DNA of 32,000 nt from assembly GCF_000009705.1 (NCBI RefSeq), contig NC_003240.1, positions 30,001 to 62,000 of the forward strand, written 5' to 3'. The position numbers and the translations under genes are program-made. The stretch's first letter is position 1. Each line of letters opens with the position of its first letter. This stretch comes from Nostoc sp. PCC 7120 = FACHB-418 (GTDB taxonomy: Bacteria > Cyanobacteriota > Cyanobacteriia > Cyanobacteriales > Nostocaceae). The notes under the pieces are model-generated. The model worked only from the letters and a program-made list of their open reading frames with translations, had not been told where the DNA came from and made no database searches. Shown piece after piece: positions 10,698 through 29,079 of this stretch.

Positions 10698-12116
10698 ATG
10701 AAAGTAGGTTTCTATCCAGTACTAGGTAAGAGCGATTTTGTCAGAAGCAAGGGTGAAAAAATCCCGATTTGGCAGTTGCTTGAGTATCAGCCTGCGGGCT
10801 GGCTATACTCACTCGCTACAAAAGCAGAAATTGTTCCAGATAGTCTGATTATTCATGACTGTGGGTCGTTTAACTACCGCGACCAAGATATTCCTACTCT
10901 CAACGGTAAATATGTTGATGCCCACTGGTCTATTCATAGATATCGAGAACGTTCAAAAGTTGGCGATATTATTGTTTGTCCTGACCATTTACTTGTAGGG
11001 GAAAATATTAGAGAACGGCAAGAATATAACCTTCAACAAGCAAAAACATTTATCCAACTTGCTAAAACTTATCTTCCCAATAGAATCCCCCTAGCAGTCA
11101 TCCACGGGCAGTCTCTTAGTGAACGCCTCGAAGTAGCAAAATATCTTCTGGGGCTGGGATACCGCCATCTCGGTATCGGTGGCCTTGTTCCCCAGGCGAG
11201 GGAGTATTCAACTAACTTGCACATTATCAAAACAATCACTGAGGTTGTGCGTTCACGAAGTGACTCGGAACGAGTATCGCCGTTCGCGAAGCGTGTCCGA
11301 CAGGACAAGGCGGGCGTTTCGCGATCGCACAGCGACTCCGCAGGAGTATCGCACGAGCCAAATGTTCATCTACACGTTTTTGGACTATGTTCGCCTCAGT
11401 ATGCCAAAGCTTTTACTCAGATGGGATTATCCTTTGATGGTTCAACTTTTATCCGAGAAGGACTAGGCGGTGGGATGTTCGTCAGCCACGAGGAAAAATT
11501 AATTCGGATGCCAGCTTACTGCACGCCAAAGTGCAACTGTCATGTTTGCAGGGTTCTCAACCGACATAGGATTGACCCTCGGCTAACAAACAAAGGACGG
11601 ACGCATACTATGGGAAGAATCGTCCACAACCTCAATCTGGCGATCGGCACTTACAGAAAGTTCACTCCCAAGGAAAAAATCTACCTGGTTGCTGGATGTG
11701 GCAAGCAGCTTCCCTACTCTGCTGCCGCCAAAGACTTATATTGTTCGCAGCACTTTCAAGCTGGCCGTCGCTACGTAGAAGAAAAAGAATCAAGATGGTA
11801 TATCCTGTCACCTTTACATCAAGTTCTTAACCCAGAAACAATCATCAAGCCCTACGATAAATCCCCCTATTCCTTATCTCATCAGGAACGTATACTATGG
11901 GCGCAACAAGTAGCAGAAAACCTCATACAAGTTGCATCTTTGGAAATAGAGTTTGTGTTCTTGACGGGCAAGCTTTACAGACAGGAGGTAACACCCATTT
12001 TACAAGCGAAGGGATACGAGATAAAAGTACCTATGCAGCACCTAGCGATTGGACAGCAACTTGCTTGGATAAAGAAGGAACTGGAGCAAGAAAAACAGCT
12101 TGTTTTAAATATTTAA
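10698..12116 (+). CDS. tRNA-guanine transglycosylase superfamily (DpdA-like) protein fused to a C-terminal DUF6884-like domain
   Basis: TGT hallmarks are present: IIHDCGSF (cf. DSGGF), LGIGGLVP, the Zn site CNCHVC (CxCxxC, nt 11532-11549) and then IVHNLN. The C-terminal ~140 aa are KIYLVAGCGKQ..AKDLYCSQHF..WYILSPLHQVLNPETIIKPYDKS..LTGKLYRQ..IGQQLAWI. These fit the DUF6884 pattern as I remember it. Confidence 0.7.
   Translation: MKVGFYPVLGKSDFVRSKGEKIPIWQLLEYQPAGWLYSLATKAEIVPDSLIIHDCGSFNYRDQDIPTLNGKYVDAHWSIHRYRERSKVGDIIVCPDHLLVGENIRERQEYNLQQAKTFIQLAKTYLPNRIPLAVIHGQSLSERLEVAKYLLGLGYRHLGIGGLVPQAREYSTNLHIIKTITEVVRSRSDSERVSPFAKRVRQDKAGVSRSHSDSAGVSHEPNVHLHVFGLCSPQYAKAFTQMGLSFDGSTFIREGLGGGMFVSHEEKLIRMPAYCTPKCNCHVCRVLNRHRIDPRLTNKGRTHTMGRIVHNLNLAIGTYRKFTPKEKIYLVAGCGKQLPYSAAAKDLYCSQHFQAGRRYVEEKESRWYILSPLHQVLNPETIIKPYDKSPYSLSHQERILWAQQVAENLIQVASLEIEFVFLTGKLYRQEVTPILQAKGYEIKVPMQHLAIGQQLAWIKKELEQEKQLVLNI
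11253..11360. repeat. GC-rich small dispersed repeat block inserted in frame in the TGT-like gene
   Basis: ~108 nt of high GC contain a HIP1 site (11321-11328). Two imperfect direct repeats are present: AGTGACTCGGAACGAGTATCGC and AGCGACTCCGCAGGAGTATCGC. The block encodes RSRSDSERVSPFAKRVRQDKAGVSRSHSDSAGVSHE between two conserved TGT blocks. Confidence 0.65.
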
Positions 12117-15470: not shown

Positions 15471-16211
15471 ATGACACTCATAGACGGACAATTAATACGA
15501 GAACACGTAAAGCAAGAATGTCAAAAATACAAATCTATTTTTCAAGCATCTCAAAAAGAAGTAGCAATCATCAGATTTGAGGCTTCAGAAAATGCCAGCA
15601 ACGGACTAAGAGCTAGATACGAAGCAGCCAGAATATCAGCAGAACAAAAAGTAGCAACATTCAACGCTATTGGCATTACTCCCAATTATATTGCGCTGTC
15701 AGCCAATATTGCAGTAGAGCAATTTGACAACATTATCCAATCCATTAATGAAAATAGCAAGGTGACTGCTGCTATTGTTCAATACCCAATTCCAGCTAAG
15801 TTTACAAGTTCAATTCAGCTATTAGAACCACAAAAAGATATAGATATCGTCCGCAGACAAAGTAACAATTTCTTTGAAAGTTGTGCTACTGCTGAAGGAA
15901 TCGCCAGAATTGTTGAATCCTACGCACAAAGGGATTCCAATGTTGCAGTTGTCGGCGGAGGTGGTTTTGTAGGTAATGGTGTCATCAAATATTTAGAAGC
16001 CAGTAGAATCAGCTGTTTCTGTTTGGAAGACGGTGATGACTTGAGTAGAACTCAAGCAGCTGACATTGTGGTATCAGTCACCGGAAGACAAGGAATTTTC
16101 ACTCCTTATGTACTCCCGTCTCATCGCTTGATTGTCGATGGTGGCTTTACACCTACTGCTTCTGGTGCTGCTGGGGATGTAGATCGCAGTGCTTATACCG
16201 TTTCACTTTAA
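15471..16211 (+). CDS. divergent FolD-like (methylene-THF dehydrogenase/cyclohydrolase fold) protein, N-terminal 246 aa; gene appears split
   Basis: FolD landmarks occur in order: LIDGQ, AAIVQYPIPA, PQKDIDI, CATAEGI, VAVVGGGGFVGNGV, ADIVVSVTG, IVDGGF and GDVD. The stop TAA (16209-16211) falls exactly where the conserved ITPVPGGVGP block should soon follow. Confidence 0.6.
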   Translation: MTLIDGQLIREHVKQECQKYKSIFQASQKEVAIIRFEASENASNGLRARYEAARISAEQKVATFNAIGITPNYIALSANIAVEQFDNIIQSINENSKVTAAIVQYPIPAKFTSSIQLLEPQKDIDIVRRQSNNFFESCATAEGIARIVESYAQRDSNVAVVGGGGFVGNGVIKYLEASRISCFCLEDGDDLSRTQAADIVVSVTGRQGIFTPYVLPSHRLIVDGGFTPTASGAAGDVDRSAYTVSL

Positions 16212-16293
16212 GTTTGATACAAGTAAGTCGCAGGGGGGCAGGGGGCAGAGAGCAGAGGGAAAGAATTAAAAACCATTAATTTGTATCAATATT
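16210..16293. repeat. MITE-like insert: imperfect 13-nt terminal inverted repeats around a G-rich heptad-like core
   Basis: AAGTTTGATACAA (16210-16222) pairs with TTGTATCAATATT (16281-16293), with a perfect 9-bp core TTGATACAA/TTGTATCAA. The core is GCAGGGG GGCAGGG GGCAGAG AGCAGAG (16230-16257). Confidence 0.5.
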
Positions 16294-16296
16294 TTC

Positions 16297-16776
16297 GTGA
16301 ATTGGTATTACAGCATCCCCCAGAACATTACGCCCGTCCCTGGAGGTGTTGGCCCGATAGAAATGGCAATTTTAGCAGAACGTTTGGTAAAAATGGATTT
16401 GGGCGTAGAACTTGGGAAATGGAACTACCAGCAATTACAGCAAGAACAAATGCAACGCGCTACTATAATTGCCCCCATAGCTAGAGTGTTCTTCGCACAG
16501 CAAGCAACTGCCTATCCTCAATCCATTCGCACAGAGAGAGAAAACCTATTTGTCTTGGAAGGCAGTAACTACCAGATCCGCTTCAATAGCACCACGCAAA
16601 GTTTGATTGTTGCCAGAACCAATGAAAAGCTAACGTTAATTCGGCTATCTCTTGCAAGTAATCAAATTGAAACCGCTAGAGGTATAACAAACGAGGATGT
16701 AACAAGATGGCAACAAATTCAAGCTGCGATCGATTCAACAACAACGCAATCAAATGATAGAGGTATGGAGCTTTGA
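16297..16776 (+). CDS. FolD-like C-terminal fragment (ITPVPGGVGPIEMAIL) plus ~110-aa extension of unknown function
   Basis: The GTG-start ORF is in a different frame from 15471-16211. It begins with the FolD signature block IPQNITPVPGGVGPIEMAILAERL. Confidence 0.55.
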   Translation: MNWYYSIPQNITPVPGGVGPIEMAILAERLVKMDLGVELGKWNYQQLQQEQMQRATIIAPIARVFFAQQATAYPQSIRTERENLFVLEGSNYQIRFNSTTQSLIVARTNEKLTLIRLSLASNQIETARGITNEDVTRWQQIQAAIDSTTTQSNDRGMEL

Positions 16777-17606
16777 AATTATCAATCATCACTGCAACAT
16801 ACAATAGACCTATGCAGCTTGCATCTACTGCACTGCCAAGCATTCAAAGTCAAACTGACCGCGATTTTGAATGGATCGTCATCAATGATGGTGCTAATAC
16901 TGAGACCAGAGATATTATCACCAGCATTAGGGCAAAAGCTGATTTCCCCATCAATTACATTGAAATGGAACACCCTGACCCTTGCAGTGGCTTTGGCTTG
17001 TGCTACGCCCGTAACTTGGGACTAGATGCAGCTGGTGGTGACATTGTTTCATACCTGGACGATGACAACAGTATAGCTCCTGAATTTGTTGCCTCAATGC
17101 GGCAGTACTTTAAACAACATTCCAATATTCGATATAGCATAGCAAGACAGCAGCGCCGCCGCGATGTCATCCGCAATGGTAGTGTTGTTCGCCAAGGAAA
17201 GCCTTTTGTTTCTCCTAGCAATTGCTGCTCGCTACAGCAGCTTCTATGGCAACAAGAGATATTCGACAGCAATGGTTTCGTCCACTACCGGAGCAATGCT
17301 CCTAGATGGCACCCCCAGTTTCAAGTATTCGCAGACTACGAGTATTTGCTGCAATCTGCTTGCATCTGGGGTGAAAGTGGCTTTGGTTTCAATGACAGCA
17401 TTCTTGTTAACTATATCCAGTCGTCTATTGGTATTATTGGTAGTTCTAATTACGAGCAGTGGGCAACTGAGCTATCGCTAATTGTCACTAATCAAGCTAA
17501 CTATTCCATCCTTAAAGGCAGTATTGTTGAACGCTTAGAACAGCTTGTAGATAGTTATAGTACTAAAGCACAAATTTCATCAACGCCAAAAGCATTTGCG
17601 TTCTGA
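16773..17606 (+). CDS. family 2 glycosyltransferase (GT-A fold)
   Basis: N-terminal KLSIITATYNRP, then FEWIVINDGANT and the DxD-type YLDDDN. The TTG start overlaps the upstream stop (CTTTGA). Confidence 0.75.
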   Translation: MKLSIITATYNRPMQLASTALPSIQSQTDRDFEWIVINDGANTETRDIITSIRAKADFPINYIEMEHPDPCSGFGLCYARNLGLDAAGGDIVSYLDDDNSIAPEFVASMRQYFKQHSNIRYSIARQQRRRDVIRNGSVVRQGKPFVSPSNCCSLQQLLWQQEIFDSNGFVHYRSNAPRWHPQFQVFADYEYLLQSACIWGESGFGFNDSILVNYIQSSIGIIGSSNYEQWATELSLIVTNQANYSILKGSIVERLEQLVDSYSTKAQISSTPKAFAF

Positions 17607-20476: not shown

Positions 20477-20526
20477 TACATCGCTTACGCACAAGATTGA
20501 TGAAAGTTTTGAGAATAAGCGATGTA
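20477..20526 (+). promoter_or_regulatory. 11-bp perfect inverted repeat whose right arm contains the ATG of the 20522 gene
   Basis: TACATCGCTTA (20477-20487) pairs with TAAGCGATGTA (20516-20526), separated by a 28-nt spacer. Confidence 0.4.
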
Positions 20527-21268
20527 CGTCGAACTATTAGCTGATTCACATCCAAACCCTAAAAAATTTCAAATTATTCACGCACCATCATTTTTACTTA
20601 CAGAAACAAATTTTCAAATAGGAGATTTTGTCGAGTCGAACAATATTGATTTTATTATCAATCATGCTGTAAATCTAGGGTATCAGGTGAAAATATCTCA
20701 TCCTGAAACTCAACAATATAATAAATATCCTCTTCCCAAAATCAGTGATGAACTAGCCGATTTGATAATTAATTATCCATCAGACTTAACACTGCGAACT
20801 AATGGGATGGTTTTTGAACAAAGGGCATATTTAATGTCTAAAGTTTACGATGAAGTGTGCCAAAACCTTGAATCAAAAGCTCTTTTAAGAGAAGCTGAGT
20901 ATTGGCTGATAAATTACGCACGAGAAGTAATTGCCAAACAATGTCATTACTTACCAGATATCCTAATAAAATTAGATAACCCAACTGTGAGAGCAATGGC
21001 AATAGATACACTCATGCTCTGGCAACCAGATTGGAACAAGGCTATCTCTCAATATAGAGGAAGTAGATTTGAGGCTGGCAATAATGAGTTTGAGGTTATC
21101 AGCTACTATCACAATCAAAAAAAGAAGGGGAGGGAGGGAATAATGGTACTGTGCAAGGTAACAAAAACCATGAATAACTATCTTGAATTTCCTACCTTTC
21201 CTTGCAATGCAAACTGTACTCTTGGGACTTATCAAGTCGAAAATGCACTTAACCAAAGGTTGGCTTAA
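20522..21268 (+). CDS. hypothetical protein (248 aa)
   Basis: Clean ORF between the helicase terminator and the next gene. No family recognised. Confidence 0.55.
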   Translation: MYVELLADSHPNPKKFQIIHAPSFLLTETNFQIGDFVESNNIDFIINHAVNLGYQVKISHPETQQYNKYPLPKISDELADLIINYPSDLTLRTNGMVFEQRAYLMSKVYDEVCQNLESKALLREAEYWLINYAREVIAKQCHYLPDILIKLDNPTVRAMAIDTLMLWQPDWNKAISQYRGSRFEAGNNEFEVISYYHNQKKKGREGIMVLCKVTKTMNNYLEFPTFPCNANCTLGTYQVENALNQRLA

Positions 21269-21296
21269 AACATAATCACCATCTGAAATATTAATT

Positions 21297-21521
21297 ATGG
21301 ACGAGCAACAAATCAACTATTTCATAACAGGTATTTGTACATTTCACTGGAATGCTGATTTTTATAAATTCTGTCAAGTCTGCAACTTTGACCCTAACCA
21401 CACCTATTCAAAAGAGAAATGGCAGCAGTGGCAACAATTTGTATCCGGTATTAAAGCGTTTGACCACAATACACTTGTTAAGCTACTTGAAGCTGGCCAT
21501 CAATTAGCACGACAGTCATAA
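21297..21521 (+). CDS. small hypothetical protein (74 aa), Cys/His/Trp-rich
   Basis: ORF with an ATG start in an otherwise non-coding gap. No family recognised. Confidence 0.4.
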   Translation: MDEQQINYFITGICTFHWNADFYKFCQVCNFDPNHTYSKEKWQQWQQFVSGIKAFDHNTLVKLLEAGHQLARQS

Positions 21522-21550
21522 TCTCAAACCACTACGGTTACTAACGCACT

Positions 21551-21595
21551 CGTGCATGAATTATCGAAGTAATTAGCCACATGAATTCATGCACG
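21551..21595 (+). promoter_or_regulatory. 12-bp perfect inverted repeat whose right arm contains the Prim-Pol start codon
   Basis: CGTGCATGAATT (21551-21562) pairs with AATTCATGCACG (21584-21595). The right arm is also part of the local palindrome CATGAATTCATG. The ATG is at 21589. Confidence 0.45.
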
Positions 21596-22587
21596 CCCAA
21601 ATCCGTCATTTGGTATCTTCGCTTGACAACCTACCCGAAGAATGGCGAATCGTCCCTACCTTTGGTAAACGTCCTTTAGGAAAAGAATGGGAAAAAAATA
21701 CTTACTCTCCCAAAGAACTACAAACTGAACTTGTCCGCCGCCGATTAAAATTTTGGACAAATAACAGACTTATCACACCCACTGGTGTAGCCTTGGTTTG
21801 CGGTTTCAATCATCCTCAAGGGTACTTAGTAGCTATTGACTGCGATGGGGAAACATCCTGGCGACACATCATCCAAATTAACGAACACCTAGAACCAAAA
21901 GAACTTAACCAGCTAACACCCGCCGAAACACGCGATACTCCTATGGAGTCGTTACACGATCGCGCTCAAAAATACCTTCCTCCCACAATTGCATTTACCT
22001 CTGGGAGGAAATATCGCAGCCAACGCTTATACCTCATTCCCAAATCAAAAGCTTGGGAAGTAAAATCTCGCAAAATCAAAACTGGAAAGGACGAACACCT
22101 GGAATTTCGAGGCAAAAACCTAGCTTCAATCCTTCCCCCGTCCTTTCATCCAGAAGGTAGAAATTACAGATGGCTTCCCGGCTGTAGTCCATCTGAACGC
22201 CAAATAGAAATAGCTCCCGATTGGGTAATTGCCCAAATGCTTGCCAAACAGGAGAAAACAAGAAAGTTTAACCTACTCAAAGAAAAATATAACCGCAGAT
22301 ATGGGGTAGACAGGTACGCTCATTTAATTCCCTCAATAGAATCCAATATTCAAACCGCACTTGTGCTACTCGAAGTTATCCACCCTCGGTTTGCAGATGA
22401 TTACCATTCGTGGATTCAAGTCGGGATGGCACTCAAGAGTGTTAGTCCCATTTTATTTAAAGCATGGGACACCTGGAGCCAACTTTCTCCTAAGTACAAA
22501 CCAGGCGAATGCGCCTACAAATGGCAGTCTTTCAAAAAGACAGGTATTACTATCCGCACCTTATTTAGATTAGCCAATCTCTCTTAA
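21589..22587 (+). CDS. bifunctional DNA primase/polymerase (Prim-Pol, AEP family) with PriCT-2 C-terminal domain; likely plasmid replication initiator/primase
   Basis: Catalytic VAIDCDGE (DxD) and LPPSFHPEGRNYRW (the conserved sxH..G..Y.W block). The C-terminal YHSWIQVGMALKS...WDTWSQ...YKPGECAYKWQSF fits PriCT-2. Confidence 0.8.
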   Translation: MHAQIRHLVSSLDNLPEEWRIVPTFGKRPLGKEWEKNTYSPKELQTELVRRRLKFWTNNRLITPTGVALVCGFNHPQGYLVAIDCDGETSWRHIIQINEHLEPKELNQLTPAETRDTPMESLHDRAQKYLPPTIAFTSGRKYRSQRLYLIPKSKAWEVKSRKIKTGKDEHLEFRGKNLASILPPSFHPEGRNYRWLPGCSPSERQIEIAPDWVIAQMLAKQEKTRKFNLLKEKYNRRYGVDRYAHLIPSIESNIQTALVLLEVIHPRFADDYHSWIQVGMALKSVSPILFKAWDTWSQLSPKYKPGECAYKWQSFKKTGITIRTLFRLANLS

Positions 22588-22589
22588 TC

Positions 22590-23072
22590 ATGAGTAATAA
22601 AACATCACCTGACAAGAATGTAACTGGCTTTGAAGATAACTATAGCAGTAAACATCTTAATCCTGATATTCAGGACTATTTAAATTTAGAAGAAACATTA
22701 GATGAATCAGTAAATACTGAAGTTACAAGTCAAGATTCATCTAGCGGGATAACTTTAACCAAAACCGCCATAATAACAATTCAGTTAACACCAAATTCTG
22801 AAAAAGCAATTATCTCAATTGGAATTCAAGATGCACCTCCGATTATTAAGATAATTCCTCTAGCTGAGATTAAATCTCAGCCTATTATAAATAACTGGCT
22901 AAATGATTTAGAAAAATCTCTTCCACAAATGTTAAATATCTGCAAACAAAGGATGGTAAAGCAGGCTACAGAGCAGAATCAACAAGAACAATCCAGACAA
23001 GTACAAAAGCGTAACCTACCTGAAGATAAAGATAAAAAACCTGCGCCTAACAACCAACTGTCACTATTTTAA
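22590..23072 (+). CDS. PRTRC protein E-like hypothetical protein ending in beta-clamp-binding consensus QLSLF
   Basis: Starts 2 nt after the primase stop. Central block AIITIQLTPNSEKAIISIGIQDAPPIIKIIPL, a basic/Gln-rich tail, and the C-terminus NNQLSLF* (nt 23055-23072). Confidence 0.55.
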   Translation: MSNKTSPDKNVTGFEDNYSSKHLNPDIQDYLNLEETLDESVNTEVTSQDSSSGITLTKTAIITIQLTPNSEKAIISIGIQDAPPIIKIIPLAEIKSQPIINNWLNDLEKSLPQMLNICKQRMVKQATEQNQQEQSRQVQKRNLPEDKDKKPAPNNQLSLF

Positions 23073-23077
23073 TTACC

Positions 23078-23500
23078 ATGAAGTACATTGCTATTATCGA
23101 AGGGCAAGAAATTCCTCTTGATGAGGCGATCGCCCAGGATGACAATACACTCAAAACAGCGATTAGCGTCTACTTTCCAGAGTATGCTAATGCCGAAATT
23201 GAACGACAAACAACTGATGATACAGTTTCAATTCGTTTGGTAAAAAAGGCAGGTACTAAGGGAAATAAATTTAGAGAATTGAAAAACTGTTTTGAAGAAA
23301 TAAATCCTGCACTAAAGTTAGGATGGCAGATAAAGCTTTTAGAGATAAACAGTCAAATTAGTCTCGAAAGTTTAATTACTTTACAACCTGAGATAGATAA
23401 AGCTATCAAGCTCGGTCAATCTTGGGAAACCTATAGCGAAAAAGTTGCTCAAAGCCTTAAACAGCAACCTGCTATTACGAGTAAATATCCTGTAGTTTAA
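23078..23500 (+). CDS. prokaryotic ubiquitin-like (Prok_Ub / PRTRC protein C-like) beta-grasp domain with ~78-aa C-terminal extension
   Basis: The first 62 aa are MKYIAIIEGQEIPLDEAIAQDDNTLKTAISVYFPEYANAEIERQTTDDTVSIRLVKKAGTKG. These match the remembered PRTRC_C pattern (..YPE...A.I......v.Y.F....GTKG). The ORF then continues for another 78 aa. Confidence 0.6.
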   Translation: MKYIAIIEGQEIPLDEAIAQDDNTLKTAISVYFPEYANAEIERQTTDDTVSIRLVKKAGTKGNKFRELKNCFEEINPALKLGWQIKLLEINSQISLESLITLQPEIDKAIKLGQSWETYSEKVAQSLKQQPAITSKYPVV

Positions 23501-23543
23501 TCACAAATTTATGGCCGCTATAATTCGTAGCGGCTGATTAATT

Positions 23544-24272
23544 ATGCTTGGCAACATCCACTCATTCAAAATACCCATTACTTGTATAACAGCAATTAAT
23601 TATCTAGAAAATCTTTCCGAACAAGTAAATATTTTAAGCCTGTATCAAAAATTATTTCCAGAAAAATGGTTAGAATCAACTATTCCTATTAATAAACAAT
23701 CACATCCATCAAGTGCTTACCTAGATAGAGAAATTGAATTTATTAACCTAGTGAATGAAAATCTATTCCCAGTAGAATATATCGATGAAATCGAGTTTAA
23801 TTCTGAACGTGATAGTATTCTAGTTTCGCCACAAAGACTTGAGTGGTGGAATGAAGATTTTGAAGAACTGGTATACTCGGAGAAGTTCCTACTGTCATTG
23901 ATGGGGCAAGGGTACAATATCAGCCAATGGAAACTAAATTTTGGTTTTACTCCTGATTACATTGCTCCAGCAGAAGAAATTTACTTCGAGAAATTCGTAA
24001 AGCTGTGTCGTCGTTACAAAAATCCCCTGCAATATTTAGATATAGCCATACAAATTATAGATTACTCAACTGAAAATATTTGGCTAGATATTACGTGTGA
24101 AACAAGCGATTGGCTGGACTGGACTTATGAGAATATCGTATTTCTCGCTCAAAAGTGGCAAGAAGCCGTCTCGATGATGGAGAAATCAAATGAGGTTAGC
24201 CATTTGTTAGAAACATCTCTTTCTGCTCGAAAAGCAGCAGTAAAAATTTGGAACCAAGCATCAAAAGCATGA
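23544..24272 (+). CDS. hypothetical protein in the position of PRTRC protein F
   Basis: 242-aa acidic ORF. Its stop overlaps the start of the E2-like gene (ATGA at 24269-24272). A hairpin GCCGCTA-N7-TAGCGGC lies just upstream at 23514-23534. No motif recognised. Confidence 0.5.
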   Translation: MLGNIHSFKIPITCITAINYLENLSEQVNILSLYQKLFPEKWLESTIPINKQSHPSSAYLDREIEFINLVNENLFPVEYIDEIEFNSERDSILVSPQRLEWWNEDFEELVYSEKFLLSLMGQGYNISQWKLNFGFTPDYIAPAEEIYFEKFVKLCRRYKNPLQYLDIAIQIIDYSTENIWLDITCETSDWLDWTYENIVFLAQKWQEAVSMMEKSNEVSHLLETSLSARKAAVKIWNQASKA

Positions 24273-24991
24273 ATGTAGATACAAATATATTACCAATAAT
24301 TAACTTAGAAAATATCTCCCAAATTCTGCTAGCCAATATTCCCCAAGATGATTTACTAGGGCAGTTAATTATCCTCAAAGGACAGTTTATTTTAGTCGAA
24401 CGCGAAGGCAAAGAGTCTAAATACAAATTCTTGTCTCCTGAAGCAGTAGAGAAAGCCTTCACAAGTAAAACTGCCGCATCTGGATGGCTTTCTAGCAACA
24501 CAATTTGGTGGGGTAAAAATCCAGAGGGAGAGGCCATTATTCAGTTTTACTCTCCCCAAAAATATCAAATTCAAATTATGGGACAGGAAACTGAAGTAAT
24601 TACTGTCCCTATGCCTGCATTCCTATTTGCTGGATGCGGTAGTAGATATTACCTGTGGGCAGTTAAAGGGAGGGTATTTAAACCAGACGCACAACTGTAC
24701 AAGCCCCCTCTACCTAACGTTTGGGAAGATTCTAGCATTTGCTTTGGGGGAAATTCTCTCAGTATGTGCAGTGCTGCAACCATAAGCCAAGTTTGGGATC
24801 TGTTCTGGAAATCACCTTTTAACAAGGACTTATCTCAAGGCAAGTCAAAAACTCATCCTGATAATATCTGCAATCAACTAATCAAATTACACGAATCTAA
24901 AGCTAAATCCTACCCTTCAAGTGACCTTGTTCCCGTTCATAGCTGGAAAGTCACAACCCCAGAAGACATTATCAATCATTTGTTCAGTTAA
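24269..24991 (+). CDS. E2/UBC-like protein (PRTRC protein B-like), candidate catalytic Cys in PPLPNVWEDSSICFGGN
   Basis: ATG at 24269 overlaps the upstream TGA (the ORF track gives TTG at 24248). Motif LPNV-x6-IC resembles the E2 HPN...C active-site spacing. The Cys codon is at 24740-24742. Confidence 0.5.
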   Translation: MNVDTNILPIINLENISQILLANIPQDDLLGQLIILKGQFILVEREGKESKYKFLSPEAVEKAFTSKTAASGWLSSNTIWWGKNPEGEAIIQFYSPQKYQIQIMGQETEVITVPMPAFLFAGCGSRYYLWAVKGRVFKPDAQLYKPPLPNVWEDSSICFGGNSLSMCSAATISQVWDLFWKSPFNKDLSQGKSKTHPDNICNQLIKLHESKAKSYPSSDLVPVHSWKVTTPEDIINHLFS

Positions 24992-24993
24992 CA

Positions 24994-25590
24994 ATGAATC
25001 CTTTTATCGGCTATCACCTCGCTACAAGTAATAACTTTCCTCCCTACAGTCAAAAACTCCAGGAATACTGGCTGGCAGCAAATGGGCTTTTCTTGCGATC
25101 GCATCGTCGCGAGTTAGAGGTTTGCTTGCAACTGTCTCAAACTCAAGTTGCTGGACTCCAACCCCTTGAACCCTACTTCCGTCTGAAAGTCCCAAAAGTT
25201 CCTTGCCAAGCGATCGCCGAGATTATCAATGCTGCTAGTATCAACCCCCAACAGGAAATCCTATTCTACTTGGGAGTGACAAACGACCAATGGTGGTGTC
25301 ACACACCACTGCAAACTGCGTCCTCTACTCACGTCTTATCTTTAGAAAGCGCACTTGATAAAAGCTATACAGATGGCTTGGTAGAAATGCACAGTCATGG
25401 AACTCTAGCTGCTTATCCTTCAAGTGCAGACAATCAGGAAGAAAAAGGCAAATTTCGAGTGTTCGCAATCATTGGCACGCTGAATAACATTCCCACAATT
25501 TATACCCGCATCGGGATATACAATCACTTTTTCGACATCAACCCCAATCAAATATTTGAACTGCCCCCACAGGTAAAATGCTTGAATTAA
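24994..25590 (+). CDS. JAB/MPN (JAMM) metallopeptidase (PRTRC protein A-like)
   Basis: Perfect JAMM motif HSHGTLAAYPSSAD (HxHx7Sx2D, nt 25390-25431). An upstream Glu candidate lies in QQEILFY. Confidence 0.8.
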   Translation: MNPFIGYHLATSNNFPPYSQKLQEYWLAANGLFLRSHRRELEVCLQLSQTQVAGLQPLEPYFRLKVPKVPCQAIAEIINAASINPQQEILFYLGVTNDQWWCHTPLQTASSTHVLSLESALDKSYTDGLVEMHSHGTLAAYPSSADNQEEKGKFRVFAIIGTLNNIPTIYTRIGIYNHFFDINPNQIFELPPQVKCLN

Positions 25591-26369
25591 CTACTTACCA
25601 ACAAGCTTTACCCGTCTTACCTCGCAATCATACTCGTATCAACTTTGTTTTAGTGGGAGTAGGAGGAACAGGCGGGTTTCTTGCAGAAGATTTATGTCGA
25701 ATTATTCTGCAACTCCAGCGCACTAGGAAAGAAATTAACTTTGCGATCGTTGATGGCGATACTGTCGAACTCAAAAATATCAGCCGCCAAAATTATCAAC
25801 AAGCTGAAATTGGACTACCAAAGGCAGAAACACTGGCTGCAAGATGCAGTGCCAAGTATGGAATAGAGATTACAGCCGTTTGCGACTGGTTTGAAGAAGA
25901 CATGATTCGCACAGCCAGTTGGTGGAATACCCTAACGGTAATTATTGGCTGTGTAGATAACAGCACAGCCAGGAGCAAAATTCACTCTGTTCTCAAAATC
26001 AACAGTGCAAATGAGCCAGCATCTCTATTTTGGCTGGATTGTGGAAACAGCAACTACTCTGGACAAGTAGTAATTGGAACGCACTCTAATTTTGATATAG
26101 TCCAAGCTTCCAATAACCCAGACAAACCTCAATTCTGGTTGCATCTTCCCTCCCCGGTGCTGGTTCACCCAGAACTGCTACTTCCTCAGCCAGAAGAACT
26201 TAGCGACAACAATCTTTCATGTGCAGAAATCCAAGCACGGAATTATCAATCACTATTCGTCAATAAAATGACGAGTGCGATCACAGCCCAGTATCTACTA
26301 GAATTAACCCTCACTGGGGGGTTGAAAAAGTTCGCTAGTACACCTCGGCGTAAATCAGCAGACCATTAA
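25578..26369 (+). CDS. ThiF/MoeB/E1-like adenylyltransferase (PRTRC ThiF-like), 3' end disrupted by IS insertion at 26337/26338
   Basis: Rossmann loop LVGVGGTGGF, then VDGDTVELKNISRQNY and GCVDNSTARSKI. The last 9 codons (TPRRKSADH*) are IS-derived. The native 31-codon tail is found at 28982-29079. Confidence 0.8.
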   Translation: MLELTTYQQALPVLPRNHTRINFVLVGVGGTGGFLAEDLCRIILQLQRTRKEINFAIVDGDTVELKNISRQNYQQAEIGLPKAETLAARCSAKYGIEITAVCDWFEEDMIRTASWWNTLTVIIGCVDNSTARSKIHSVLKINSANEPASLFWLDCGNSNYSGQVVIGTHSNFDIVQASNNPDKPQFWLHLPSPVLVHPELLLPQPEELSDNNLSCAEIQARNYQSLFVNKMTSAITAQYLLELTLTGGLKKFASTPRRKSADH

Positions 26370-26427
26370 ATAGCCAAAACTTTGCCCTTATATGTCCACT
26401 TAAAAGGTTTAGCCATTGTTTTATTAA
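26366..26427 (-). pseudogene. displaced last 19 codons of the IS630 transposase (NKTMAKPFKWTYKGKVLAI*)
   Basis: Translated by hand from the minus strand. It is contiguous with FIDYF once 26428-27743 is removed. Confidence 0.75.
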
Positions 26428-27740
26428 GAGAACTGCACAGAATGATTGATCCTATGATCAGAGAAAGATAATTTCAGTGTGCAGCCTACCTCATGTCTCC
26501 AAAATCTATCATTCAACTCACAGAGAACCTAAAATCTCTTTACATCAAAACAGCGAAAAAACTCAAGGGAAGCGACCGACGACAATTCATGGCAGAAGTG
26601 GTCAAAGGTTTGGGAATTGGTGGACAGACTTTAGTAGAACGCGAGTTGGGATGGAATAGGCGTACTATCCGTAAAGGGATGCAGGAGTTGGAGAGTGGCA
26701 AGCCTTTTATTGATGGTTTTGAGCGTAGTGGACGTAAGCGGGTGGAAACAAAATTACCAAACTTGTTGGAGGATATTAAATCGTTAGTAGACCCACAAAC
26801 TCAAACTGACCCCAGTTTTAAGAGTACACGCTTATATACACGCATGACGGCAAGTGTTGTACGTCGTCAACTAATTGAACAATTTGGTTACAGTGACAAA
26901 GAACTACCTTCATCAGAGACAATTCGACGACGATTGAATGATTTGGGTTATACCTTAAAACGAGTTCTGAAAACCAAGCCTATCAAGAAGATTCCAGAAA
27001 CAGAAGCCATTTTTGAACAAGTCGAGCAAATTAATACTGAAGCTGATAATGACCCTCATACTCTCCGGATCTCCATTGATGCGAAGGTGGCAGTCAAGAT
27101 TGGAGAGTTTGACCGAGGTGGTAAAACTCGAATCCCAACTACCTCATTAGACCACGACTTTCCGACCGAGATGACTCTGATTCCCTACGGCATTTTTATA
27201 CCTGAGTACAACGAGTTATTTTTATTTTTCGTTTCTTCCAAATTAACTGCTGATTGTATTGTTGACTTGCTTGAAAGCTGGTGGCAAAATGTCAAACACC
27301 GATTTGCTCATATTCAAAAACTGGTAATTAATCAAGATAATGGACCGGAAAATCATTCTCGTCGCACTCAGTTTATGAAGCGGGTTGTAGATTTTAGCAC
27401 ATCATCTCAACTGACGTTACAACTTGCTTATTATCCGCCGTATCATAGCAAATACAACCCAATAGAACGTTGCTTTGGTTGGTTAGAACAGCATTGGAAT
27501 GGTAGTTTACTTGACACCGTTGAGACCGTACTGAATTTCGCCCAAACTCTCACATTTAAGGGTAAAAATCCGGTTGTCACACTGGTAGAAAAAGTTTACT
27601 CCACAGGAGTTAAACTTACAACTTCAGCTATGGAAGAAATTGAAACCCAGATTAACCGCCTCCCCAATCTCAAAAAATGGTTTGTGGAAATTTTTGCTAA
27701 ACCAGCATAGCTATTGGATCATCTTTTTTGTGGAGTTCTC
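26428..27740 (+). mobile_element. ISAzo13-family insertion sequence nested inside the IS630 transposase gene, TAA target duplication
   Basis: Ends are GAGAACTGCACA (26428-) and TGTGGAGTTCTC (-27740). TAA sits at 26425-27 and 27741-43. Removing the element restores the IS630 ORF ...FIDYF|NKTMAKPFKWTYKGKVLAI*. Confidence 0.8.
26493..27710 (+). CDS. ISAzo13-family DDE transposase
   Basis: 405-aa intact ORF. The N-terminal region ([36 protein letters not shown]) and the DDE region (ISIDAK...[11 protein letters not shown]...[17 protein letters not shown]) fit the family as I remember it. Confidence 0.8.
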
Positions 27741-28365
27741 TAAAGTAGTCAATAAATTTGAGGATTCGATTTTTCAAATCATCTTGACTGAGGAAACTGG
27801 CTCTTCTGAGTAACTTGCGAACCAAAATACTGAACCAAATCTCAATTTGATTGAGCCACGAAGAATGTTTGGGTGTGTAATGAAACACAATTCGGTGTGC
27901 TGGGTCACTCAAAAAAGTAGTGCGGGATTTCATTGATTTAAGGATACCACTTTCTCCCTTTATACCCAGGTCAAGATTCAAACCTTCTTTTTCTGCAACT
28001 AAACGAACTAGAGACTCAGACTGATGAGTGTTCAAGCAGTCCATAATGAGATGCCATTTTTTAGCCTGGGTATCAGTTTCAATTGTTCGACGAATATGAA
28101 GAGCAAAATCAATTTCTGTTCTGGTATCTGAACAAGTCGGCTCGACAATTTGACCTGTGGCAACATCGAAGCTGGCAATTAAGCTTTGTGTACCGTGACG
28201 AATATACTCAAATTCCCTTCTTTCGACTTTGCCTGGTCGCATTGGCAAGTCTTTTTCTAATCGCTCAGTAGCTTGAATACCTGTCATTTCATCAATCGAT
28301 ATTGTCCGTTCCCCCTTTATATGACGTTCGATTGCACTGATGTATAAACCAGTAATATCTTCCAC
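27697..28365 (-). pseudogene. IS630-family transposase, DDE catalytic part (orfB), C-terminus replaced by the ISAzo13 junction
   Basis: DDE_3-type blocks [11 protein letters not shown] and [12 protein letters not shown]...[19 protein letters not shown] are present. Homology stops at FIDYF (~27744), and the following [14 protein letters not shown] is read from the ISAzo13 end. Confidence 0.75.
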
Positions 28366-28913
28366 CTTTGCATCAAATTCTTCATCTTGAGGGGGGGGGT
28401 TAACCAGTAGCGGCTCTGGTGGGGTTTAAGTTCTGCTTCTTCAAGTAATCTTCCCAGATGGCGAATAGATATGCTTTCAATAATTCCTTGTTTGATGATT
28501 TCGTCCGTTAGTTCTCTTACCGTCCAATGACTTATTGGTCTTCCGTAATCGGATGGTGGAGAACAAGCTAATGCAAACAACTCGATTACTTGTTCCATAC
28601 TAAACTTTGGGCGTGCGCCAACACGCTCAGAGTCTTGTAATCTTTGCTCAATTAATAATTCTTTCCCCTCAGTTTCTAACCATCGGTTTCGCCATAAACG
28701 CGCCGTTTGCCGATTGACATCTAAATTTCGGGCAATTTCACGATGATTTTGACCCTCTGATGCCATGAGAATTATTTTGGCTCGTAGTGCTATCTGTTGC
28801 GGCGTGTTGTGTCTGTTTATCAACTTTTGGAGTTGATCTCGTTCGCCATCGCTTAAATTTAATATTTTAGGAGTTAATCTAGCCACACCCTGATTCCTTG
28901 ATCCGTAACCCAA
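28317..28913 (-). pseudogene. IS630-family transposase, N-terminal HTH part (orfA)
   Basis: Contains the helix-turn-helix / homeodomain-like regions typical of IS630/Tc1. It ends just after a C9 tract (plus-strand G9 at 28390-28398), where the reading frame shifts. Confidence 0.75.
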
Positions 28914-28981
28914 AACGGGTTTTAACTTGATTATTTATTCTCCCACCAATATGGTCTGTTTATTTACGCCGACCTGTACTA

Positions 28982-29079
28982 GTTATTTTGACCTCACAGC
29001 AATGTCAACCCGAAGTTTATATACAAGCATTGACCAACTCAAAAAATACTATATTCTGCAAACAAATTACCACAAATAG
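28982..29079 (+). other. displaced native 3' end of the ThiF/E1-like gene (…S)YFDLTAMSTRSLYTSIDQLKKYYILQTNYHK*
   Basis: This segment is in frame with 25578-26337 after in-silico excision of 26338-28981. The restored ORF would be 285 aa. Confidence 0.7.

Follow-up and report, generated by a model that had tools for sequence, protein, structure and literature searches.

The open reading frame (ORF) at 23078..23500 (+) of a 32,000-nucleotide stretch of Nostoc sp. PCC 7120 = FACHB-418 (contig NC_003240.1, positions 30,001 to 62,000; this whole stretch is hereafter the window) raises the question of why a ubiquitin-like protein (Ubl), encoded in one cassette with an E2, a JAB/JAMM peptidase and an E1, continues for 78 residues beyond the glycine that is its predicted functional end. 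In our study, we consider it probable, from sequence comparison, that in this ORF two neighbouring genes of the cassette are naturally fused, one for the Ubl and one for a small helical protein (approximately residues 76-140), and that its two products are separated by the JAB peptidase after Gly62. The peptidase of the cassette would cut the peptide bond between G62 and N63, which would expose the glycine carboxylate for adenylation by the ThiF-type E1 and then for transfer to Cys165 of the E2, and the same cut would free an equimolar amount of the helical protein, acting as a separate component of the system. We infer the cleavage, the identity of the protease, the conjugation and the function of the released domain from the comparative evidence presented below.

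An earlier note on this DNA, made from its letters alone, had observed that the frame runs through Gly62 for 78 residues with no stop, and both the coordinates and the translation agree with it. The ORF encodes 140 amino acids, with an ATG start and a TAA stop at 23498-23500. Its first part is a predicted ubiquitin-like beta-grasp domain (residues 1-62; 23078..23263, +), supported by structure prediction, by the end point of a TIGR03738 alignment, by a hidden Markov model (HMM) of our own and by a bridging search with protein P0238, all of which are described below. This domain closes with a GTKG motif (residues 59-62; 23252..23263, +), whose last codon is GGA (23261-23263) and after which lies the predicted site of JAB cleavage and E1 adenylation, as suggested by its conservation and by the ends of the split and poly-Ubl forms. 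From there, N63-V140 (NKFRELKNCFEEINPALKLGW...SKYPVV) follow in frame to the TAA, first as a variable linker (residues 63-75; 23264..23302, +), recognized by an indel among homologues, a variable spacing and a drop in model confidence, and then as a conserved helical C-domain (residues 76-128) with an extended tail (129-140; together 23303..23497, +), supported by structure prediction, by conservation and by its existence elsewhere as a gene of its own. There is no in-frame start codon directly after Gly62 of this ORF, and therefore the second half is not translatable by itself.

The joined form is not particular to this replicon. Full-length homologues of 140-145 amino acids, at 58-96% identity, occur in many genomes and plasmids of Nostocales, and dozens of independent genomes and completed plasmids carry the continuous ORF at 58-98% identity, which shows that the reading frame is no sequencing artefact. 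A profile search against 1.84 billion representatives returned 360 clusters (at the 50% identity level) with E<=1e-3, 174 of them with E<=1e-10; most of the 360 are 137-160 amino acids long and are matched end to end, and the named members of the family belong to Cyanobacteria and Acidobacteriota (Pyrinomonadaceae, Blastocatellia). Among the 150 best representatives of these clusters, 140 carry the Ubl and the C-domain in a single chain, with a layout of beta-grasp Ubl, variable linker and helical domain of about 65 amino acids. Neither the 140-amino-acid protein nor either of its halves gave a significant match in Pfam, NCBIfam or PHROGs. The only strong family match was the PADLOC model PDLC01077 ("C3a152, Type III-C specific"), which covers residues 3-118 (23078-23431) at E=1.9e-22; the fused family is thus already represented by a profile, classed as a putative accessory cluster of CRISPR type III and carrying no functional annotation.

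Within this family, conservation is concentrated on the junction glycine and is relaxed immediately after it. G59, K61 and G62 are invariant in three of our alignments (A1, A3 and A4) and reach 90% conservation or more in a fourth (A2); across 114 diverse sequences, the positions conserved at 90% or more include K56, G59, K61 and G62 and, in the second half, L68, N76 and L127, and 113 of these 114 rows have glycine at both positions 59 and 62. The residue that follows the junction glycine is variable and chiefly small or polar (A, N, G, S or T), the linker contains a 5-residue indel among close homologues, and between 13 and 140 residues (median 17) separate the glycine from an NPA motif among the representatives. 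The earlier note had set against processing an extension that was general among homologues and lacked a conserved glycine at the junction; what we found is an extension that is indeed general, yet the junction glycine is conserved.

Structural modelling points to two separate domains. An AlphaFold2 (AF2) model of the 140-amino-acid protein, built from a 56-sequence alignment, predicts a beta-grasp, a linker of lower confidence and a separate helical domain. The first part contains strands at residues 2-7, 10-14, 40-46 and 49-55 and helices at 16-19 and 22-30, so that the topology of residues 1-55 is beta-beta-alpha-beta-beta; the linker is the lowest-confidence stretch, with a predicted local distance difference test (pLDDT) of 66-74; and the C-domain consists of helices at 77-90, 96-101 and 103-128. 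The full chain has a mean pLDDT of 84.5 and a predicted template modelling score of 0.44, a value that fits two domains lacking a fixed mutual orientation. Modelled as a piece of its own, as the earlier note had proposed for the extension, the C-domain is predicted to be a small helical bundle with a pLDDT of 87.8. Foldseek searches against the PDB returned nothing at E<=0.001, either with the full model, whose weak top matches are ubiquitin-like domains that include BilA, or with the C-domain alone, whose weak top matches are generic helical proteins. At the sequence level, TIGR03738 (PRTRC_C) aligns weakly to the Ubl (E=0.11, 12.7 bits, cut-off 45.95), and the alignment ends at the last position of the profile, which falls on Gly62; PF14454 (Prok_Ub) does not match the Ubl of the window. 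The Ubl HMM built from the window's family matches the PRTRC_C proteins of Cupriavidus (CH34), Caballeronia, Hydrogenophaga and Burkholderia at about 1e-7 to 1e-6, and P0238, which does carry PF14454, finds in tblastn both canonical genes annotated as "PRTRC system protein C" and the Tolypothrix copy of the ORF.

In some relatives the two halves are arranged differently. On finished plasmids of Planktothrix, Oscillatoria and Pseudanabaena the Ubl and the C-domain are separate genes: in Planktothrix agardhii p1 a Ubl with the ending ...NGSKG is followed, 2 nucleotides past its stop, by the start of a C-domain gene that ends ...IPTGF; in the Oscillatoria PCC 7112 plasmid the Ubl ends ...GSKGVK and the C-domain is the next gene; and in Pseudanabaena ABRG5-3 the Ubl ends ...GTKGAT and the C-domain gene overlaps it by ATGA. 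The same split is found in the surveyed loci L011, L105 and L096, the Ubl of the last belonging to PF14454, and a C-domain encoded as a separate gene of 74-84 amino acids occurs in L008-L012, L096, L101 and L105. The family's remaining stand-alone Ubls terminate at the glycine itself or 1-12 residues past it. Two proteins (P0087 and P0115) consist of five head-to-tail Ubl units, each ending AGTKG; locus L013 (1055-1944) has the same five units as tandem separate genes, beside E2, JAB peptidase and E1; and in P0123, P0132 and P0166 the Ubl is joined to unrelated C-terminal regions. Since fused, split and poly-Ubl forms all break at the GxKG glycine, this glycine is a recurrent module boundary. 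Likewise, because the C-domain can be encoded as its own gene, it is a component of the cassette in itself, and the extension is more than a propeptide or an arbitrary cargo.

If exposure of the glycine depended on the JAB peptidase, cassettes without the peptidase should be informative. HMMs for the Ubl, C-domain, E2, JAB and E1 were run on stop-to-stop translations of about 100 cassettes: 80 genome loci, taken at species level around the E2 gene as anchor, and further loci from plasmids, metagenomes and viruses (the metagenome and viral scans gave two loci each). Nine loci, in four lineages, have no JAB gene: the Planktothrix type (L009, L019, L024 and L025), L011 with L012, L095, and L101 with L102. 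No JAMM motif is present in any frame of these nine loci, the E1 gene comes directly after the E2 gene in each of them, and in all nine the encoded Ubl has the glycine as its very last residue. Among the approximately 17 sequence types of JAB-containing cassettes, 16 have a Ubl that continues past the glycine, either as a tail (1-9 residues) or as a fusion (37-103 residues). Oscillatoria and Planktothrix form a near-minimal pair, with the same gene order and closely similar Ubls: the former has a JAB gene and a Ubl ending GSKGVK, whereas the latter has no JAB gene and a Ubl ending GSKG. At the lineage level, the association between the absence of JAB and a glycine-ending Ubl has a Fisher p of about 8e-4, a value from rough hand arithmetic that is uncorrected for phylogeny. 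This pattern is as expected if exposure of the glycine were an essential function of JAB and deconjugation an additional one; as a genomic rule, that a cassette without JAB encodes a Ubl ending at its glycine argues that glycine exposure is an essential task of the peptidase. We also observed that in L011 (8051-8985) and L012, which are independent metagenome contigs, the E1 is encoded as two ORFs of 190 and 89 amino acids, either a frameshifted pseudogene or a real split.

Taken as a whole, the comparative evidence favours JAB cleavage over a fusion that stays attached, because the GxKG motif is near-invariant, the linker is variable, the different gene forms break at the glycine and the Ubls of JAB-less cassettes end there. 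It is important to note that several observations weigh against this proposal. Cleavage in this family is a prediction from sequence comparison, and the assignment of the first domain as a Ubl rests on weak sequence matches and non-significant Foldseek hits. The surveyed loci are not phylogenetically independent, the loss of JAB amounts to only four lineages, and one of these, that of L011 and L012, has the split E1, which may be a pseudogene. The Sulfuricystis cassette has a JAB gene, yet its Ubl ends exactly at the glycine (GTKG), so that JAB must have at least one further role. The C-terminus of most family members is a conserved ...P-x-G-F, the purpose of which a precursor model does not explain. 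Finally, the E1 gene of the window itself is disrupted by an insertion sequence (IS).

The best-surviving alternative is that the fusion stays intact and that the beta-grasp is a non-conjugated module, tethering the helical domain to one of the enzymes (E1, E2 or JAB) in the manner of the integral UBL domains of eukaryotic proteins, with these enzymes acting elsewhere, either on another substrate or only in relatives whose Ubl is free. That the fused form is the majority architecture suggests a benefit in keeping the parts joined, and the prediction of two well-folded domains is compatible with such a protein. However, the invariant internal G-x-K-G is hard to account for if the chain is never opened there, the split forms show that the parts function as separate chains, the Ubl of JAB-less systems invariably has a free glycine end, and the poly-Ubl proteins retain the motif in every unit; we thus regard a permanently joined protein as improbable.

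Weaker still, and in our judgement very improbable, is the idea that the E1 activates the C-terminus of the full-length chain (...P-x-G-F), as Cap2 does with CD-NTase tails, which would leave the internal GTKG as a structural relic. In its favour, 113 of the 143 representatives that contain the C-domain end in GF (for example, L009 5180-5434 and L096 990-1244), and the extensions of canonical PRTRC_C proteins have aromatic endings such as FGIWG, FGFWG, SGF and PPCF. Nevertheless, the clade to which the window belongs ends KYPVV or KYPVL, with no glycine, and its GTKG is still invariant; in the split systems the tail belongs to a protein that has no beta-grasp; and the GxKG glycine is the end point of canonical Ubls and of the TIGR03738 model. 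The same P-x-G-F tail was considered as a motif for binding the beta-clamp, an idea that arose from the DnaN genes near some cassettes; this candidate was set aside, as the tail lacks the Q-L-x-L-F pattern that is the consensus for beta-clamp binding. As an observation in its own right, homologues of DnaN (the beta-clamp) on the element adjoin or lie near the cassette in L001 (14537-16423), L005 (1142-2335), L006 (6245-7390) and L112 (2516-3643), which are distant lineages, one of them a canonical PRTRC locus; in L001 the DnaN gene is accompanied by a clamp-loader-like AAA+ gene.

The canonical PRTRC_C proteins also vary in how far they extend beyond the glycine. The earlier note had stated that PRTRC-type Ubls end at or right after the glycine, which is correct for many of them: the chain has no residues past the glycine in D. 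gobiensis and in Sulfuricystis, where a separate 74-amino-acid gene ending IVPPCF follows, and it has three in B. vietnamiensis, five in C. metallidurans CH34 and nine in Caballeronia. The statement does not extend to others, with 37 additional residues in Ca. Manganitrophus, 69 in Hydrogenophaga (ending FGIWG) and about 70 in Polaromonas (ending FGFWG). The extensions of canonical PRTRC_C proteins gave no match to the C-domain HMM (E above 0.03), and only a loosely similar aromatic tail is common to both. We also considered that the C-domain might be hidden in the N-terminus of canonical PRTRC_F, and there the HMM likewise gave no match.

Lastly, the possibility that the read-through is an accident of this one sequence (a lost stop, a frameshift or an assembly error), for which one could cite the split arrangement on other plasmids and a single Logan assembly that has a near-identical gene as two ORFs (P0221 and P0224), is refuted by the wide conservation of the continuous ORF, in dozens of genomes and plasmids and, more widely, in hundreds of clusters, and its probability is negligible.

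Processing of the fusion by JAB after Gly62 would have precedents in other systems. In the Bil ubiquitination system, the JAB peptidase BilC has been demonstrated to cleave BilA behind its glycine, exposing that residue for adenylation (10.1101/2023.09.26.559546). Genes for a Ubl, E2, JAB peptidase and E1 are likewise grouped in the BilABCD operon described by Chambers et al.; that system differs in that the BilA of E. aridi loses a single residue, whereas the Ubl of the window carries a conserved folded domain, and in that the Bil E1 is a pseudodimeric two-domain protein, the Bil E2 is from a different family and Bil is a phage defence system. A parallel to the fusion itself is found in the natural linear MoaD-MoaE fusions, which are cleaved by JAMM/MPN+ proteases (DR0402 of Deinococcus and HvJAMM1) to generate a C-terminal glycine (PMC8832034). 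There, too, a beta-grasp protein is joined through its C-terminal glycine to a partner from its own pathway, and the JAMM protease must separate them to activate both; unlike in our case, the pathway is one of sulphur carriage, with no E2 and no protein conjugation, and the function of MoaE is known. Eukaryotic ubiquitin, in turn, is encoded as fusions and as polyubiquitin (PMC11354881). The eukaryotic genes (Ub-L40, Ub-S27a and polyubiquitin) resemble the present family in being short-tailed, fused to a protein of about 80 amino acids, or arranged head to tail, and all of them break at the terminal glycine, but their sequence is unrelated beyond the fold, and the predicted processor here is an operon-encoded JAMM metalloprotease.

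The cassette as such is not new. It corresponds to the PRTRC cassette, which Iyer, Burroughs and Aravind described in 2006 as operon type 6d, with Anabaena variabilis listed among the hosts (PMC1779556); it has thus been known from sequence since that year, and it is common on conjugative plasmids and integrative and conjugative elements. As far as the consulted part of the 2006 description goes, type 6d is presented there with no helical domain fused to the Ubl, as it is here (PMC1779556). In the literature searched, within its accessible text, we found no description of a fusion of Ubl and helical domain in type 6d systems, and the same literature gave no report of a function for the type 6d/PRTRC cassette. 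A JAMM-processed Ubl precursor or fusion is already known; the additions are the extra component, the series of fusion, fission and poly-Ubl forms, and the rule on JAB loss. The first of these, the C-domain, is an additional component of the cassette, named in none of the Pfam and NCBIfam models searched nor in the consulted part of the 2006 description. Although the mechanism will be unsurprising to specialists, the family gives a directly testable prediction, a JAB cut between G62 and N63, and its bacterial equivalents of ubiquitin fusions and polyubiquitin genes bear on the origin of ubiquitin gene organization. A further proposal, which we make tentatively and consider rather unlikely, is that the helical C-domain is an unrecognized core subunit of type 6d/PRTRC-like cassettes, serving as a target-recognition or E3-like adaptor or as a regulator that docks through its conserved C-terminal tail. 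If so, JAB cleavage would be a zymogen-like switch that frees modifier and adaptor in a 1:1 ratio and, with the fivefold poly-Ubl proteins, all three eukaryotic ubiquitin gene architectures, together with their dependence on a peptidase, would already exist on bacterial mobile elements.

The genes around the ORF place it in this context. The co-directional row consists of a DEAD/MZB helicase, a 248-amino-acid protein, a 74-amino-acid ORF (21297-21521, with no family match), a Prim-Pol, a 160-amino-acid protein, the Ubl fusion, a 242-amino-acid protein, Prok-E2_D, Prok-JAB and the ThiF-type E1, and its gene order is that of the canonical PRTRC cassette of C. metallidurans pMOL28 (ParB-E-C-F-B-A-ThiF). 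The 160-amino-acid protein (22590..23072, +) occupies the PRTRC_E position, where related loci carry a gene for 138-315 amino acids, and it has no Pfam or NCBIfam match. The 242-amino-acid protein (23544..24272, +) is placed at the PRTRC_F position by synteny, PRTRC_F being the alpha-helical protein of type 6d; it matches neither PF14456 (alpha-hel2) nor TIGR03742, whereas the PRTRC_F of pMOL28 matches PF14456 at 5.5e-109. The E2-like protein (Prok-E2_D; 24248..24991, +) matches PF14460 at 1.9e-47 and TIGR03737 (PRTRC_B) with 66 bits (cut-off 131), and its Cys165 (24740-24742) is invariant in alignment A5. The JAB/JAMM metallopeptidase (24994..25590, +) matches PF14464 at 7.4e-12 and TIGR03735 (PRTRC_A) with 45 bits, below the cut-off; its motif HSHGTLAAYPSSAD (HxHx7Sx2D, at 25390-25431) and Glu88 (25255) are intact, the predicted active-site residues including His133, His135 and Asp146 besides Glu88, and the motif is conserved in six divergent orthologues. 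The JAB gene named in the earlier note is thus real, but it is not adjacent to the Ubl ORF, as was stated there, since it lies two genes downstream. The E1-like ThiF adenylyltransferase (25578..26339, +), of which residues 1-253 are present before the IS, matches PF00899 at 3e-17 and TIGR03736 (PRTRC_ThiF) with 125 bits (cut-off 145), and its Gly loop, GVGGTGG, is at 25656-25676.

All four NCBIfam PRTRC matches (Ubl, E2, JAB and E1) are therefore below their cut-offs. The resemblance to type 6d/PRTRC (TIGR03734-03742; Prok_Ub, alpha-hel2, Prok-E2_D, Prok-JAB), lies in the order of an E-position gene, the predicted Ubl, a gene at the place of the helical protein, E2, JAB and ThiF-type E1, in the conserved glycine of the predicted Ubl and in the location on conjugative plasmids; the differences are the sub-threshold NCBIfam scores, the absence of PF14454 and PF14456 matches, the lack of a ParB in the window and the helical domain fused to the Ubl. 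No ParB domain was found in the sense-strand ORFs of at least 110 amino acids of the 32-kb window, although the gene may lie outside it, and ParB is present in L011 and in canonical PRTRC loci. As the gene order is that of type 6d/PRTRC and the scores fall short of the cut-offs, we describe the cassette as PRTRC-like and not as a canonical member.

The E1 gene of the window is interrupted by an inserted IS block of about 2.6 kb (26340..28978), recognized by its transposase ORFs and imperfect terminal inverted repeats. It contains a DDE_Tnp_ISAZ013 ORF (26493-27710, +) and HTH/DDE ORFs (27697-28913, -), and it is flanked by CTAGT at 26335-26339 and 28979-28983. Homology to the intact E1 of relatives stops at codon S253 (nucleotide 26339), and the displaced 3' end of the gene, its last 31 codons (YFDLTAMSTRSLYTSIDQLKKYYILQTNYHK followed by the stop; YFDLTAMSTRSLY...NYHK and the stop), lies at 28984..29079 (+), where it matches the E1 C-terminus of L049, L054 and L061. 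The E1 is intact in close relatives, such as the Tolypothrix PCC 7712 plasmid NZ_CP063786.1, and the genes for the Ubl fusion, E2 and JAB are intact in the window copy. Because the E1 is cut by the IS, the conjugation cascade may be inactive in this replicon; processing of the fusion may still happen in the window copy, while conjugation may not.

The DNA of the window belongs to a conjugative element of cyanobacteria, with genes for TrbI and a type IV coupling protein upstream of the cassette. Conjugative plasmids of 215-300 kb from Tolypothrix, Trichormus (Anabaena) variabilis, Nostoc and Scytonema share 96-97% identity with the region 20500-26339, and a copy of ORF 23078-23500 on an A. variabilis plasmid is 94% identical. 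The gene row of the element also includes a DUF6884 protein, a homologue of FolD-like methylene-tetrahydrofolate dehydrogenase/cyclohydrolase and a family 2 glycosyltransferase (10698-12116, 15471-17606). On the Oscillatoria PCC 7112 plasmid (L008 8608-10425), a CBASS-like pair, formed by a DncV-like nucleotidyltransferase and a SAVED-domain protein, is located directly downstream of the cassette on the opposite strand.

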